64,000 nucleotides of DNA from Eledone cirrhosa (taxonomy: Eukaryota), in contig OZ024751.1 of NCBI GenBank assembly GCA_964016885.1, forward strand, positions 29,574,001 to 29,638,000. The letters run 5' to 3'. Numbering within the stretch: position 1 is the stretch's first letter; each line of letters begins with the position of its first letter. Below, in pieces: positions 15,580-63,612 of this stretch. Under the pieces are notes generated by a model. It was given only the letters and a program-made list of their open reading frames with translations, did no database searches and was not told the DNA's origin. The translations under genes and the position numbers were made by a program.

Positions 15580-15750
15580 AATATAGACCAAAACCGAAAG
15601 AGAACTTGATAAGGGTTATATATCATTATCATCATCAAGTATATATATAAACCTGTAGAGCAAATATTTATTATTACTACAGATTAAAAGTTTCAGCAAT
15701 AAATTACTGCTTTCATCCTATGTAGGATTATCTGAAACAATATCAGATAA
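15580..15750 (-). mobile_element. Penelope-pLTR-like cassette with degenerate HHR (15690-15738); same family as 21488-21560 and 33095-33310
   Basis: Shared gtagagcaaatatttatt...cagattaaa.gttt and gtttcaga.aatcc...gga.gaaagcag motifs. Confidence 0.6.
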
Positions 15751-15754
15751 ATAA

Positions 15755-15811
<57 letters not shown>

Positions 15812-15822
<11 letters not shown>

Positions 15823-18800
15823 GATCGAGTATCGAAAAATCGGCGCACGAGTTAACGAAAAACGAAATCCGATATGAGCGGCAGAGGGCTCAATAATTCA
15901 GATGAATCAGAGCTATAACTATCGTTAAAATACCGTCACATATAGAACAAGTCTACAATCAACCATACGATTTAAAATCGATAAAGGAAGATTCGGGCCA
16001 AACAGATAAAAAATATCAATAAAACAATACGTCAATAATTTAAATGAATGTAAAATCATACCCGGACCCACTAGAAAGGTGTTAAATCTAGCTTCATGGG
16101 TTTCTGTAAATCCTTAGACAGTACTCTATCAGCTCACATATAAATATAAAAGCCTACTAGAATAAGTGGAATGGAGTTTACGTTGTCAACGAGTTTTATC
16201 CTGGCGGCAAAGGAGTCAACTAGCGGTGAAAAACGCACATGGCATTAGACAAGGGAGATGACCCCTATATCCGCGAAAATAATTCGAGTGAATGTGGAAA
16301 TACACATATCGAATTAGAGTGCTCAATAGACATGTTAAAATAAAACAAAAGCTATTCATCACTCAATAGAATCGACAAAATATGAGCAATAAAATTAACT
16401 GGTGGATAGCTATGTCCAGAGCTAAATATATTAGAAAGATCGAGTATCGAAAAATCGGCGCACGAGTTAACGAAAAACGAAATCCGATATGAGCGGCAGA
16501 GGGCTCAATAATTCAGATGAATCAGAGCTATAACTATCGTTAAAATACCGTCACATATAGAACAAGTCTACAATCAACCATACGATTTAAAATCGATAAA
16601 GGAAGATTCGGGCCAAACAGATAAAAAATATCAATAAAACAATACGTCAATAATTTAAATGAATGTAAAATCATACCCGGACCCACTAGAAAGGTGTTAA
16701 ATCTAGCTTCATGGGTTTCTGTAAATCCTTAGACAGTACTCTATCAGCTCACATATAAATATAAAAGCCTACTAGAATAAGTGGAATGGAGTTTACGTTG
16801 TCAACGAGTTTTATCCTGGCGGCAAAGGAGTCAACTAGCGGTGAAAAACGCACATGGCATTAGACAAGGGAGATGACCCCTATATCCGCGAAAATAATTC
16901 GAGTGAATGTGGAAATACACATATCGAATTAGAGTGCTCAATAGACATGTTAAAATAAAACAAAAGCTATTCATCACTCAATAGAATCGACAAAATATGA
17001 GCAATAAAATTAACTGGTGGATAGCTATGTCCAGAGCTAAATATATTAGAAAGATCGAGTATCGAAAAATCGGCGCACGAGTTAACGAAAAACGAAATCC
17101 GATATGAGCGGCAGAGGGCTCAATAATTCAGATGAATCAGAGCTATAACTATCGTTAAAATACCGTCACATATAGAACAAGTCTACAATCAACCATACGA
17201 TTTAAAATCGATAAAGGAAGATTCGGGCCAAACAGATAAAAAATATCAATAAAACAATACGTCAATAATTTAAATGAATGTAAAATCATACCCGGACCCA
17301 CTAGAAAGGTGTTAAATCTAGCTTCATGGGTTTCTGTAAATCCTTAGACAGTACTCTATCAGCTCACATATAAATATAAAAGCCTACTAGAATAAGTGGA
17401 ATGGAGTTTACGTTGTCAACGAGTTTTATCCTGGCGGCAAAGGAGTCAACTAGCGGTGAAAAACGCACATGGCATTAGACAAGGGAGATGACCCCTATAT
17501 CCGCGAAAATAATTCGAGTGAATGTGGAAATACACATATCGAATTAGAGTGCTCAATAGACATGTTAAAATAAAACAAAAGCTATTCATCACTCAATAGA
17601 ATCGACAAAATATGAGCAATAAAATTAACTGGTGGATAGCTATGTCCAGAGCTAAATATATTAGAAAGATCGAGTATCGAAAAATCGGCGCACGAGTTAA
17701 CGAAAAACGAAATCCGATATGAGCGGCAGAGGGCTCAATAATTCAGATGAATCAGAGCTATAACTATCGTTAAAATACCGTCACATATAGAACAAGTCTA
17801 CAATCAACCATACGATTTAAAATCGATAAAGGAAGATTCGGGCCAAACAGATAAAAAATATCAATAAAACAATACGTCAATAATTTAAATGAATGTAAAA
17901 TCATACCCGGACCCACTAGAAAGGTGTTAAATCTAGCTTCATGGGTTTCTGTAAATCCTTAGACAGTACTCTATCAGCTCACATATAAATATAAAAGCCT
18001 ACTAGAATAAGTGGAATGGAGTTTACGTTGTCAACGAGTTTTATCCTGGCGGCAAAGGAGTCAACTAGCGGTGAAAAACGCACATGGCATTAGACAAGGG
18101 AGATGACCCCTATATCCGCGAAAATAATTCGAGTGAATGTGGAAATACACATATCGAATTAGAGTGCTCAATAGACATGTTAAAATAAAACAAAAGCTAT
18201 TCATCACTCAATAGAATCGACAAAATATGAGCAATAAAATTAACTGGTGGATAGCTATGTCCAGAGCTAAATATATTAGAAAGATCGAGTATCGAAAAAT
18301 CGGCGCACGAGTTAACGAAAAACGAAATCCGATATGAGCGGCAGAGGGCTCAATAATTCAGATGAATCAGAGCTATAACTATCGTTAAAATACCGTCACA
18401 TATAGAACAAGTCTACAATCAACCATACGATTTAAAATCGATAAAGGAAGATTCGGGCCAAACAGATAAAAAATATCAATAAAACAATACGTCAATAATT
18501 TAAATGAATGTAAAATCATACCCGGACCCACTAGAAAGGTGTTAAATCTAGCTTCATGGGTTTCTGTAAATCCTTAGACAGTACTCTATCAGCTCACATA
18601 TAAATATAAAAGCCTACTAGAATAAGTGGAATGGAGTTTACGTTGTCAACGAGTTTTATCCTGGCGGCAAAGGAGTCAACTAGCGGTGAAAAACGCACAT
18701 GGCATTAGACAAGGGAGATGACCCCTATATCCGCGAAAATAATTCGAGTGAATGTGGAAATACACATATCGAATTAGAGTGCTCAATAGACATGTTAAAA

Positions 18801-19011
18801 TAAAACAAAAGCTATTCATCACTCAATAGAATCGACAAAATATGAGCAATAAAATTAACTGGTGGATAGCTATGTCCAGAGCTAAATATATTAGAAAGAT
18901 CGAGTATCGAAAAATCGGCGCACGAGTTAACGAAAAACGAAATCCGATATGAGCGGCAGAGGGCTCAATAATTCAGATGAATCAGAGCTATAACTATCGT
19001 TAAAATACCGT

Positions 19012-19018
<7 letters not shown>
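15812..19018. repeat. Tandem array of 5.2 apparently identical 615-bp non-coding units inserted in (TA)n
   Basis: ttagaaagatcgag recurs at 15816, 16431, 17046, 17661, 18276 and 18891; no ORF of 60 aa or more within the units; both ends merge into TA tracts. Confidence 0.97.
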
Positions 19019-19067
<49 letters not shown>

Positions 19068-19119
19068 TATATATATAAATATATATATATGTGTATATAT
19101 ATATATATATAAATATATA

Positions 19120-19207
<88 letters not shown>

Positions 19208-19307
19208 TATATATATAAATATATATATATGTGTATATATATATATATATATATAAATATAAATATATATATATGTGTATATATATATATATATATATAA
19301 ATATATA

Positions 19308-19376
<69 letters not shown>

Positions 19377-19381
19377 GTATA

Positions 19382-19424
<43 letters not shown>

Positions 19425-19429
19425 GTATA

Positions 19430-19484
<55 letters not shown>

Positions 19485-19509
19485 ATATATATATATATAT
19501 AAATATATA

Positions 19510-19564
<55 letters not shown>

Positions 19565-33538: not shown

Positions 33539-33632
33539 ACCCCTTGATAAGCTCCGCTATTTAAATACCAGAATAAATTTTCATTCGGTCCAGAATTAGC
33601 CGTCGAAACGGCTTGAGCTCAGCCGTCGGGGT
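33539..33632 (+). ncRNA. Type-I hammerhead, U3-A8 variant, with long stem II
   Basis: ACCCC-TTGATAA-G...C-GAAA-CGGCT tgagctc AGCCG-TC-GGGGT; GUC triplet; half copy at 26451-26478 shows compensatory CAGCT/AGCTG. Confidence 0.72.
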
Positions 33633-33723: not shown

Positions 33724-33771
<48 letters not shown>

Positions 33772-37599: not shown

Positions 37600-38160
37600 C
37601 GAGGCCATAGTATCTAGAATAAGGACGGGTTGGAAGAAGTTTAGGGAGCTGCTTCCTCTGTTGACGAAGAAGGGTTTCTCCCTGCATACGAAAGGACAGT
37701 TATATGATGCCTGTGTGAGATGCGCGATGCTGCATGGTAGTGAGACATGGGCAGCAACTGCAGAGGATATGCGACGGCTGGTGAGAAATGAAGCAAGTAT
37801 GCTCCGTTGGATGTGCAATGTCAATGTGCGTGAACGACCAAGCATGGGTGAGTTGAGAAACTGGGTACAAGAGGAATAAGTTGTGGTGTGCAGGAGAGAA
37901 GGCTGAGATGTTATGGACATGTGATGCGCATGGAGGATGACCGCTGGGTAAAGAAGTGCCAATAAATCCCAGTAGAAGGAAGACGCAGTAGAGGAAGACC
38001 ACGTAAAACATGGGCGGAGGTGGTGAGAGCAGACCTCAGATCATTGAAACTCACTGAGGAGATGACGAAGGACCGTGACAAGTGGAGAGATGCTGTGCTG
38101 AATAAGACCCGTCCCACCCTTGCAAGCAGGGAAAAGCGGACGTAAAATGATGATGATGAT
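37600..38160 (+). mobile_element. RTE-clade LINE 3' fragment (frameshifted), fused to an upstream SINE tail
   Basis: EAIVSRIRTGWKKFRELLPLLTKKGFSLHTKGQLYDACVRCAMLHGSETW...; (TGA)n tail. Confidence 0.92.
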
Positions 38161-38181
38161 GTTGATATGTATATTTATATG

Positions 38182-38238
<57 letters not shown>

Positions 38239-38839
38239 CTTATTATGTATATCATTCACATACTACCCTTCCTGAATTCATTTTCATCTCTGTATAGAAT
38301 GCATGGTTAATATATTTAACATATGCATGTAAAATCTTAATTTGTTTAAAGAATAGTTGATAATTTTTTTTTGTCTGTTTATTTTTCTGTTCTTTATTTA
38401 CTGACTAATTGCTATTTGTTTATTCAATTATCAGTGATGAATATTTCTCATTCATTAGTCAATAAATATTACTTGATGCCTAAATCAATTACACTAAGCC
38501 AATGATGATGGTTCAGCTTTCTTTATTGAACTAACACTCTGGGGGAATATCACTTCACTCATTCACCGAATAAAAGTAGATTTGTTCCCAACACCACTCT
38601 AATTGATCGTGTAATTAAAAACATTGCCATTCGTTAACATTTTCAAGCAATTCTTCTCTAACTACAATGTTTTTATTTGCTGAACATGAGGCCCCACCAC
38701 CACCACCCGCTACCATCATCATTATCATCATCACCACCACCATTATCACCATCATTATCATCATCATCATCACTACTATTATCATCGTCACCACTATCAT
38801 CATCATCATCATCATCTTCATATTTTTTCCATTTTGACA

Positions 38840-40660
38840 TGGATTGGATTGGTTGACATTATCTGTGATTAGATAGGCCAAGGAGAGCTCTTCTGGCTTG
38901 GGTTGGAGAGGTTGACATTGTCTGTGATTAGATAGGCCAAGGAGAGCTCTTCTGGCTTGGGTTGGAGAGGTTGACATTGTCTATGACTAGATAGGCCAAG
39001 GAGAGCTCTTCTGGCTTGGGTTGGAGAGGTTGACATTGTCTGTGATTAGATAGGCCAAGGAGAGCTCTTCTGGCTTGGGTTGGAGAGGTTGACATTGTCT
39101 ATGACTAGATAGGCCAAGGAGAGCTCTTCTGGCTTGGGTTGGAGAGGTTGACATTGTCTATGACTAGATAGGCCAAGGAGAGCTCTTCTGGCTTGGGTTG
39201 GAGAGGTTGACATTGTCTGTGATTAGATAGGCCAAGGAGAGCTCTTCTGGCTTGGGTTGGAGAGGTTGACATTATCTGTGATTAGATAGGCCAAGGAGAG
39301 CTCTTCTGGCTTGGGTTGGAGAGGTTGACATTGTCTGTGATTAGATAGGCCAAGGAGAGCTCTTCTGGCTTGGGTTGGAGAGGTTGACATTGTCTATGAC
39401 TAGATAGGCCAAGGAGAGCTCTTCTGGCTTGGGTTGGAGAGGTTGACATTGTCTGTGATTAGATAGGCCAAGGAGAGCTCTTCTGGCTTGGGTTGGAGAG
39501 GTTGACATTGTCTATGACTAGATAGGCCAAGGAGAGCTCTTCTGGCTTGGGTTGGAGAGGTTGACATTGTCTATGACTAGATAGGCCAAGGAGAGCTCTT
39601 CTGGCTTGGGTTGGAGAGGTTGACATTGTCTGTGATTAGATAGGCCAAGGAGAGCTCTTCTGGCTTGGGTTGGAGAGGTTGACATTATCTGTGATTAGAT
39701 AGGCCAAGGAGAGCTCTTCTGGCTTGGGTTGGAGAGGTTGACATTGTCTGTGATTAGATAGGCCAAGGAGAGCTCTTCTGGCTTGGGTTGGAGAGGTTGA
39801 CATTGTCTATGACTAGATAGGCCAAGGAGAGCTCTTCTGGCTTGGGTTGGAGAGGTTGACATTGTCTATGACTAGATAGGCCAAGGAGAGCTCTTCTGGC
39901 TTGGGTTGGAGAGGTTGACATTGTCTATGACTAGATAGGCCAAGGAGAGCTCTTCTGGCTTGGGTTGGAGAGGTTGACATTGTCTATGACTAGATAGGCC
40001 AAGGAGAGCTCTTCTGGCTTGGGTTGGAGAGGTTGACATTGTCTATGACTAGATAGGCCAAGGAGAGCTCTTCTGGCTTGGGTTGGAGAGGTTGACATTG
40101 TCTGAGACTAGATAGGCCAAGGAGAGCTCTTCTGGCTTGGGTTGGAGAGGTTGACATTGTCTGAGACTAGATAGGCCAAGGAGAGCTCTTCTGGCTTGGG
40201 TTGGAGAGGTTGACATTGTCTATGACTAGATAGGCCAAGGAGAGCTCTTCTGGCTTGGGTTGGAGAGGTTGACATTGTCTATGACTAGATAGGCCAAGGA
40301 GAGCTCTTCTGGCTTGGGTTGGAGAGGTTGACATTGTCTATGACTAGATAGACCAGAGAAGAGATCTTCTGGCATGGGTTGGAGAGGTTGACATTGTCTG
40401 AGACTAGATAGGCCAGAGAAGAGATCTTCTGGCATGGGTTGGAGAGGTTGACATTGTCTGAGACTAAATAGGCCAGAGAAGAGATCTTCTGGCATGGGTT
40501 GGAGAGGTTGACATTGTCTGAAAACAAGACAGACCAGGGAAAGCTCTTTTAACATGGATTGCATAGATTGACAATGTCTAAGACTAGATAATCCAGGGAG
40601 GGCTCTTCTGGCATGGGTTGGATAGATTGATGTTGTCTGAGACTAGACAGGCATGGAAGA
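38840..40660. repeat. 59-bp (edge units 60-bp) satellite, ~30 copies, amplified inside a minus-strand SINE tail
   Basis: Unit gttgacattgtct(a/g)tga(c/t)tagataggccaaggagagctcttctggcttgggttggagag; flanks resemble a SINE tail (left) and SINE body (right). Confidence 0.95.
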
Positions 40661-41080
40661 GCTCTTTTTGCTCATACATTCCAATTTAGCATAATTTCTA
40701 TAGTTGGATATCTTTCCTCGTGTCAACCACCTTACAGAGTGTACCGGATGAATTTTATCATGGCACTAACATTTTAAAGAGGGCTCTGGGTGCATTTTAT
40801 GATGACACCAGTACTAACACTTTACAGAGTGTACTGGGTGTATTTTATCATAACCCCACTAGGACTATAAAAAAAAACAGAGGTATATTTAAAGGTTAAT
40901 TTTTCTTTAATTTGACAAAGAATATTCTTATAATTTACATTAAATGGATTTAAATTTTGTCAAATATTACCAGTTTCCATTGGTATATCAATCTTACTAA
41001 ATATTAAAAGAAGTTTGTTCTATTACTCTGTGGGCAGTTGAAACATATATATATCTTTTGTTTTGAACTGTTCAGTTCCA

Positions 41081-44179: not shown

Positions 44180-44770
44180 AAATTACAGAATAATCAAAAC
44201 TATGTTCAAAACATTTTATTGCTGACAATCGTTTCTTCCAAACTTTCGTTTGGAATCATCAGAGCATTGGCAAAGTTTAGACATATAATTAACCTCCTAT
44301 TCCACAGAACAATCATAAAGATACGTAGATGTTAGTGTTGTCATCAACAGTGTCATATTTACAGAGTGGAGATGTGGTCAGTATCAGTGGATGCGACAAA
44401 GATTATAAAAGAATAATACAACAATTATAGAGGAATTAAAGTAGAGAGTTACTCGCAAAACGAGGACATTAGCAGTACATATGCAAGCGTATAGAAAGAG
44501 TGCAGATGTGTTAGGCATGTACAGAATAACCAGGTAAGAAACAAGCAATGGTACTAAGCATATATATCACAGTATGGCAAAGGTGTCACATAATAGAATA
44601 CAGGTGTAAAAGTATATTAAGCAGACAGACATTATCACACTACATCCCCCATAAACTTCATAGAAACTGCTTTTCATACACAAGCATCTCTGTCTGCTTA
44701 ATATGCTTTTAATATGCTTTTATACCTGTATTGTATTATGCGATACCTTTGCCATACTGTGATATATATG
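44180..44770 (-). mobile_element. Penelope-pLTR-like cassette with HHR and terminal inverted duplication (44559-44629 / 44689-44770)
   Basis: Canonical HHR followed by AATAAA on the minus strand; fold-back at the other end. Confidence 0.7.
44220..44266 (-). ncRNA. Canonical minimal type-I hammerhead ribozyme
   Basis: TGCT-CTGATGA-TTCCAAAC gaaa GTTTGGAA-GAAA-CGATTG-TC-AGCA; 8-bp stem II with GNRA loop; quasi-palindromic stem III; GUC cleavage between 44224 and 44223. Confidence 0.88.
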
Positions 44771-62982: not shown

Positions 62983-63572
62983 CCGAGGCCATATTATCTA
63001 GAATAAAGGACGAGTTGGAAGAAGTTTAGGGAGCTGCTCCCTCTGCTGACGAAGAAGGGTTTCTCCCTGCATACAAAAAGCCAGTTATATGATGCCTGTG
63101 TGAGGAGCGCGATGCTGCATGGTAGTGAGACATGGGCAGCAACTGCAGAGGATATGCGACGGCTGGAGAGAAAAGAGGCAAGCATGTTCCATTGGATGTG
63201 CAATGTCAGTGTGCGTGAACGACCCAGCATGAATGTGTTGAGAGAGAAACTGTGTCTGAGAGGGATAGAATGTAGTGTGTGAGAGAGGAGACTGAGGTGG
63301 TATGAACTTGTGATGCGCATGGAGGATGACCAATGGGAGAAGAAGTGCCAAGAAATTCCAGTTGAAGGAAGACGTGGTAGAGGTAGACCAGGAAAAACAT
63401 AGACGGAGGTGGTGAGAACAGACCTCAGATTGCTGAAGCTCACGGTGGAGATGACGAAGGAGCGTGACAAGTAGAGAGATGCTGTGCTGAATAAGACCCG
63501 TCCCACCCTTGCAAGCAGGGAAAAGTGGATATAAAATGTTGATGATGCGGATATAAAATGATGATGATGATG
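62983..63572 (+). mobile_element. RTE LINE 3' fragment
   Basis: AMLHGSETWAATAEDMRRLERKEASM...; collinear with 37600-38160. Confidence 0.92.
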
Positions 63573-63612
63573 ATATATATATATATGTGTATATATATGT
63601 GTATGTTTGTGT

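Follow-up and report, generated by a model that had tools for sequence, protein, structure and literature searches.

Animal non-LTR retrozymes have been proposed to spread through RNA circles and a borrowed reverse transcriptase (accessible parts of PMC7229834 and of bioRxiv 10.64898/2026.07.22.740005). Their circles mostly leave the ribozyme free, whereas those of plant retrozymes and viroids block it, according to the accessible text of PMC7229834. A vertebrate survey, cited from its accessible portion, links retrozymes to Penelope pLTRs and reports that, among nine predicted retrozyme dimers, eight stayed uncleaved in vitro and one was cleaved (bioRxiv 10.64898/2026.07.22.740005). For the Penelope reverse transcriptase of the anole, uncleaved RNA is the main template in vitro and synthesis starts internally at fixed sites (PMC11167929, accessible part).

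Here, we analyse a 64,000-nucleotide stretch of the Eledone cirrhosa genome (assembly GCA_964016885.1, contig OZ024751.1, positions 29,574,001 to 29,638,000 of the forward strand), hereafter the window, to which all coordinates refer. It harbours a tandem array of 615-bp units that is a young insertion of an animal non-LTR retrozyme variant. The explanation that we favour, with a probability of about 0.62, is a recent retrozyme insertion by way of hammerhead cleavage, 615-nt circles and TA-primed reverse transcription round the circle.

The array and its dispersed family

Across 2,594 consecutive positions, the sequence repeats with a period of 615 and 0 mismatches, which corresponds to an array of identical units (Table 1). 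This agrees with an earlier note made from the letters alone, which had described identical 615-bp units inside a TA tract, the number of units being that of the assembly. Its claims of CpG enrichment and of missing open reading frames are also sustained, the CpG observed/expected ratio being 1.32 for the unit, 0.39 and 0.49 for its flanks and 0.36 over the window, and the longest stop-free frame in the tandem measuring 62 codons. The GC content of the unit is ~0.35. When folding is compared with that of shuffled sequences, the minus strand stands out (z -3.0) and the plus strand, on which the note had read its hairpins, folds no better than shuffles (z -0.6).

Table 1. Features of the 615-bp array, in window coordinates
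Feature	Position	Strand	Basis
Left (TA)n target tract; putative reverse-transcription primer	15747-15816	.	repeat scan
Tandem array, 5.22 identical 615-bp units	15811-19019 (3,209 bp)	- (inferred RNA sense)	periodicity, array comparison
Fixed end (RNA 3' side, putative cDNA start)	15811-15833	-	junction comparison
Conserved 3' structured domain with covarying helices, adjoining the fixed end; candidate reverse transcriptase binding site	15820-15945	-	alignment
Conserved downstream CCCG, predicted to sequester the stem I 3' arm; one per unit, every 615 bp	15994-15997	-	folding, conservation
Variant type I hammerhead, unit 1	16060-16194	-	folding, alignment
Variant hammerhead, unit 2	16675-16809	-	folding
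Variant hammerhead, unit 3	17290-17424	-	folding
Variant hammerhead, unit 4	17905-18039	-	folding
Variant hammerhead, unit 5	18520-18654	-	folding
Last partial unit (unit positions 1-133), variable truncated end	18886-19019	-	array-end comparison
Right (TA)n tract	19015-19564	.	repeat scan

The unit belongs to a dispersed family. A search of the window's own 3.0-Gb genome, in which 24 of 394 candidates were scored, returned 24 arrays of 1.4-15.7 units on many contigs, at 99-100% identity. The unit is thus not unique in the genome and its array is not an assembly artefact of a single locus; as DNA-transposon ends are absent, it is not part of a DNA transposon either, and three readings that the earlier note had kept in view as fatal to its own fall away. 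A second set was made of the first 41 junction sites listed on one contig minus one that was already known, and these 40 loci are 88-100% identical to the window unit. The exact TA insertion junction of the window's subfamily group has 751 matches in the genome (control 0). Broader patterns designed for older subfamilies give 623, 5,314 and 5,786 matches (controls 0, 0 and 4), the last count being that of the genome-wide ribozyme core pattern. The subfamilies extend down to ~49-50% identity, with monomers of 572-678 nt.

The two ends of the arrays behave differently. The left boundary is the identical base beside (TA)n in 23 of the 24 top arrays, the exception adjoining an assembly gap, and the right ends vary among these arrays. 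Over both sets, 58 variable ends are visible once 6 arrays that run off the retrieved stretch are excluded; they are spread over unit positions 18-590, none of them lies at a unit boundary, and TA follows 35 of them. Similarly, ~46 of 52 rows picked by internal motifs alone reach (TA)n within ~35 nt of a shared terminal motif, and this motif occurs on both strands in none of the 52. An inverted arm is found at 1/58 visible variable ends; at this locus (L037, 1-2000), the variable end is followed by ~850 bp of inverted sequence, an arm whose far end does not coincide with the fixed end. The earlier note had taken both ends of the window's array as microhomologies, but the left one is the fixed end of the family and not an incidental junction; likewise, the ~130-bp terminal redundancy that it had described is merely the last partial unit, since the right ends of other copies are scattered over the unit. 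Duplications of 9-43 nt containing a non-TA base are present at 5/57 insertion sites, all of low complexity.

Arrays with a constant end on one side and a variable one on the other have the polarity of target-primed reverse transcription in which the minus strand serves as RNA. The fixed end lies 253 nt downstream of the predicted cleavage site and is single-stranded in the predicted circle. Strand choice from the subfamily alignment gives z -7.5 and -8.2, values that do not separate the strands, which differ only by energy (-75.7 versus -57.8) and by the counts of G-U versus A-C (72 versus 41).

Rolling-circle DNA elements, too, are expected to form tandem copies in AT-rich targets and to have one end fixed and the other variable. 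A non-autonomous Helitron-type element undergoing rolling-circle transposition with failed termination would fit the ends, the tandem copies and the targets seen here, but the junction sequence has neither a 5' TC end nor a CTRR-TC junction, 0/58 ends stop at a unit boundary, and a complete hammerhead fold is conserved on the would-be RNA template strand. We regard this reading as the least probable of those considered.

The unit or its subfamilies also appear in contigs of 17 public sequencing runs from 13 studies, with no RNA run among those 17 listed. Pieces of the family were recovered from 7 public runs, and the head-to-tail junction was present in 4/4 checked for it. One public run, compared with window positions 15830-16440, yielded a single self-closing contig of 645 nt (615 plus overlap) with ~99% identity and without other subfamily pieces; the type of this run is not on record, hence the contig is no evidence of an RNA circle.

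A variant hammerhead and its predicted block

Each full unit in the window (5/5) holds one type I hammerhead in a variant form. In unit 1, read on the minus strand, stem I pairs 16194-16190 with 16064-16060, and the core starts with U3 at 16189, where UUGACAA is followed by one extra base. A stem II of 76 nt closed by G-C comes next, then one extra A and GAAA from 16104 (G12); downstream follow stem III, which contains an inner hairpin, then GUC and finally the stem I 3' arm, the predicted cut falling between C17 (16065) and 16064. Taken alone, this 135-nt region folds into the three-way junction of a type I hammerhead with P(stem I) 0.82. The earlier note was right to suspect a divergent processing motif, although it had missed this variant hammerhead, which lies on the minus strand. 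The spacing of the motif departs from the canonical one in that G10.1-C11.1 is not placed directly between A9 and G12 and in that stem II is not short. The variant architecture thus consists of a U3-A8 core with an extra base on each side of G10.1-C11.1. Across copies, stem II measures 68-87 nt (73-81 nt in most) and stem III 35-83 nt. In the subfamilies at two loci (L223 and L226), TA-like inserts have lengthened stem III to 83 nt, and the core and stem I are intact.

The core is in place in 83/88 distinct regions, its GAAA and GUC side being partly fixed by the search pattern. In the 83 regions, position 3 is U or C (80/3), U4 is present in 83, G5 in 82 and A6 in 82, position 7 is free, position 8 is A or G (67/16) and A9 occurs in 79; the 3-8 pair is U-A in 65, U-G in 15, C-A in 2 and C-G in 1. 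GUC is also retained, and stem I altered on both sides, in subfamilies that were found by patterns lacking the 3' motif. In an alignment of 30 copies, which leaves out two copies with a very long stem III, two near-duplicates and four unparsed loci, 87% of cells pair, compared with 29-41% in slid controls, and G10.1-C11.1 is kept in 30/30. Two-sided changes affect 61 cells versus 20 in shuffles (0/500), while, counted by pairs, those changed on both sides (10 versus 7.7; 50/500) do not exceed shuffles. The aligned copies are related, and the majority came from searches with the 3' half of the hammerhead motif. In minimum free energy folds of 34 copies, stem I is closed in 24/34 and all three junction pairs are formed in 16/34.

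On the strength of these folds, a tandem transcript would quite probably self-cleave at the hammerhead. As stem III is predicted to be stable, a dimer should not be needed for cleavage. The reaction could be slowed by the very long stems, by the U3-G8 wobble (15/83) and by the extra A that separates C11.1 from G12.

Rfam returned no ribozyme match on the unit or on the units of 12 related loci, because the core strand is located ~85 nt upstream of GAAA. Several other candidates were rejected. The motif CUGAUAGA at 16132 on the minus strand was considered as a hammerhead core, and lies inside stem II with a next base that varies freely. The conserved CAG and GGGUA motifs were also considered as marks of an intron, a reading that was set aside because they are helix and core residues and because in some subfamilies the spacer is down to 9 nt. 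Folds of the hairpin and HDV-like ribozymes mismatch in topology and key residues, as judged by eye against their consensus. In viral contigs, the pattern has 15 matches, none fitting the unit profile, which we take as chance. Searches of the openly accessible literature yielded no description of a comparable family or of stems of this length. A 2017 paper is said to deal with hammerhead variants of Penelope elements.

Elsewhere in the window, at 44262 (-), lies a hammerhead with a CUGAUGA core strand, whose stem II has 8 bp and whose stem III is minimal; it scores below the Rfam threshold. The window also contains a 59-bp minisatellite (38832-40672, ~31 copies, ~94% alike) and a 620-bp direct repeat (37600-38220 and 62984-63604, 86% identity), whose tested frames have no Pfam match.

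The ribozyme is also predicted to be switched off by its downstream context. In folding simulations, stem I is lost once the transcript is extended by at least 60 nt past the cut site, and CCCG at 15997-15994 pairs with the 3' arm of stem I in the predicted circle. This strand is present in 70/74 copies having that arm, despite very different spacer lengths, and copies with a changed arm have a matching strand in 2/5 cases. P(stem I) exceeds 0.5 in 15/20 isolated motifs and is below 0.1 in 19/20 circles, the low values in circles being weak evidence alone because a 5-bp stem is easily outcompeted. The active fold is thus predicted to form during transcription and then to be blocked by the downstream strand. 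As for the predicted circle, it is branched, with 60% of its positions paired and a circular z of -2.0.

Template and copying enzyme

The family is dispersed and targets TA tracts, its ends are polar, its arrays are uniform, its ribozyme core is conserved and its stems covary. The mechanism that best accounts for this would start with a tandem minus-strand transcript that likely self-cleaves once per unit and whose monomers are probably closed by ligation into circles of 615 nt. Priming on the nicked TA tract, a reverse transcriptase of probable Penelope-like type would then begin at a single internal position and run round the circle until falling off, leaving a multimeric insertion with a variable end. 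The rolling-circle cDNA origin put forward in the earlier note is thereby the best-supported mechanism, with a putative circle; we consider it quite likely that monomers circularise.

The composition of the arrays speaks to the nature of the template. Among 39 arrays totalling 248 units, 18 haplotypes are distinguished and that of the window fills 19/39. The arrays sharing it show almost no variation between units, and a new haplotype takes up all 7-10 units of its array. Of 53 variants that differ between units of an array, none is polymorphic in another array. The unit junction is identical in 256/261 cases, the remaining 5 having one substitution each. Since arrays are uniform and unit-specific variants are never common to several arrays, a monomeric circle is favoured as template, and each array looks like a seamless copy of a single monomer. 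No more than 2 copies in the genome stop at the cut site with TA behind it, from which it follows that copying runs through this site. A linear cleaved monomer was rejected as the usual template, given these 2 copies plus one further array (L059) that stops exactly at the predicted cut site, where a Hydra-type hammerhead palindrome follows directly with its short 3' end.

Alternatively, the template may be an uncleaved read-through transcript of a donor array, with a hammerhead that is slow, protein-assisted or vestigial and no need for a circle. This would be in line with the preference of the anole Penelope enzyme for uncleaved RNA in vitro (PMC11167929, accessible part), with the free passage of the cleavage site during copying, with the existence of long donor arrays (16 units at two loci) and with the full-length folds, in which stem I is predicted to be blocked in 19/20 units. 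However, a read-through template hardly explains why new haplotypes fill arrays of 7-10 units or why unit-specific variants never recur in a second array, 5' truncation alone would make arrays shorter at each generation, and the catalytic positions are conserved across subfamilies down to ~50% identity. We therefore hold it as unlikely.

Array length points in the same direction as uniformity. The longest arrays are the least diverged: 5/9 arrays at least 99% like the window exceed 10 units, and loci at or below 97% have a median of ~0.9 unit (24 loci). In four of the 39 arrays, variants are common to several units of the same array (5/13 units in one), which indicates some local expansion or conversion. 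Such variants would also be produced if short copies inserted and then expanded in place by unequal exchange in the manner of satellites, a route discussed for retrozymes (bioRxiv 10.64898/2026.07.22.740005, accessible part). Yet, 19/39 arrays consist of one haplotype with almost no unit variation, and the greater length of the least diverged arrays is the reverse of growth with age; as a general explanation, in situ expansion is very improbable. Copying round a monomeric circle thus remains our preferred reading, to which the fixed start 253 nt from the cut site, the seamless junctions and the uniform arrays conform.

Regarding the copying enzyme, TA-targeting Neptune-like and Hydra-like Penelope elements (clade labels as read from the accessible part of PMC8557442) are abundant in this genome, some with long open frames, and carry reverse transcriptase and C-terminal GIY-YIG domains. 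A very young Hydra-like family has frames of up to ~713 codons and 97-100% protein identity among 150 scored of 77,109 candidates; its C-terminal 353 residues have no Pfam match. Two 3' ends occur in this family, each at 15 of 30 loci, and likewise in a further set (27 and 26 of 58), and mirror-image arms are numerous in the Penelope-like families examined. Penelope-like hammerheads of the genome include U3-A8 cores; that of one Neptune-like family has extra bases on both sides of stem II, and that of one Hydra-like family a stem II of 54 nt. A U3-A8 hammerhead with a 54-nt stem II also lies in the window at 33539-33632 (+), reaching (TA)n near 33725. Its motif ends a Hydra-like Penelope element at another locus (L085) and is very frequent as short palindromes with two fixed ends ~80 nt apart. 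At four loci (L151, L154, L155 and L165), the longer 3' end of one Neptune-like family shares its last 8 bases before (TA)n with the young retrozyme subfamily analysed here; older retrozyme subfamilies differ, so that this may be chance.

A Penelope-like partner is likely in view of the shared TA target, the hammerhead type and a fixed end downstream of the hammerhead, and we judge it likely, if slightly less so than circularisation, that the copying enzyme was Penelope-like. The two-site signature of Penelope elements is missing here, with one end in 23/24 arrays and an inverted arm at 1/58 variable ends, which raises the question of the copying enzyme. In a sample of 79 Penelope loci from top-scoring families, without Naiad, none has sequence in common with it apart from an independent neighbour at one locus, and no autonomous partner sharing sequence with the 615-bp family was found among the Penelope loci sampled. 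Three family motifs have 0 matches in a cephalopod entry of the PMC8557442 supplement, as far as its accessible part extends. A TA-targeting reverse transcriptase of LINE type acting on the RNA circle would explain the single start and the absence of two-armed insertions, the Penelope-like families examined having two ends, as well as the lack of a sequence common to the Penelope loci. Nevertheless, the target, the hammerhead type and the position of the fixed end all match the Penelope-like elements of this genome, and the Penelope sample holds top-scoring families only; we consider a LINE-type enzyme rather improbable. Equally doubtful, and more speculative, is a viroid-like lineage of animal circular RNAs, ancient and diversified in this genome, which would have a switchable hammerhead with long arms of its own, might replicate as RNA and would be written into TA tracts from time to time. 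The reverse transcriptase writing it would act at a single site and leave one arm, a signature unlike the known Penelope route.

Comparison with known systems

This family offers a clean genomic test of how retrozyme arrays arise. Moreover, as a long-stem hammerhead that escapes Rfam and short-stem descriptors reaches more than 5,000 copies in one genome, surveys may undercount retrozymes.

Like animal non-LTR retrozymes, the family is made of tandem repeats that are non-coding and low in GC and hold a single type I hammerhead in each unit (accessible parts of PMC7229834 and bioRxiv 10.64898/2026.07.22.740005), from dimers to long multimers, dispersed and without LTR features, as judged here from the head-to-tail arrays. 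It differs from them in its monomers of 572-678 nt, the usual range in the accessible sources being 150-450 with up to 972 reported, in its non-canonical hammerhead with very long stems II and III and, compared with most animal retrozymes covered by the accessible text of PMC7229834, in a conserved strand predicted to block the ribozyme.

With Penelope-like hammerheads, it shares the U3-A8 core, the extra base after A9 (between 9 and 10.1), the conserved G10.1-C11.1 and a short stem I (PMC4209133, accessible part), and with the Hydra and Neptune elements themselves the (TA)n target, a fixed 3' end downstream of the ribozyme and 5' truncation (PMC8557442, accessible part). In contrast, stem II has 7-8 bp in the Penelope-like hammerheads of the accessible part of PMC4209133 and 73-81 nt in most copies here, where stem III is stable and an extra A precedes G12. 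Unlike Penelope-like elements, the family has no open reading frame, one start site instead of two and rare inverted arms, and no sequence in common with them was found. MRC1 and other non-autonomous elements of Chlamys are closer in lifestyle, being non-autonomous, multicopy head-to-tail insertions attributed to a Penelope-type enzyme; in the accessible part of PMC8557442, they resemble their autonomous partner at the 3' end, whereas none was found here, and their clade is mostly devoid of hammerheads, whereas one is present here.

Finally, viroid-like circular RNAs and plant LTR retrozymes are of the same size class and have a hammerhead that is likewise predicted to be blocked in the circle, but the present family consists of genome-encoded tandem arrays, has a type I ribozyme in one polarity only and adopts a branched rather than highly paired predicted fold. 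The 615-bp family is a new form of animal non-LTR retrozyme, which combines a long-stem hammerhead, a predicted viroid-like block and a single-site insertion signature.
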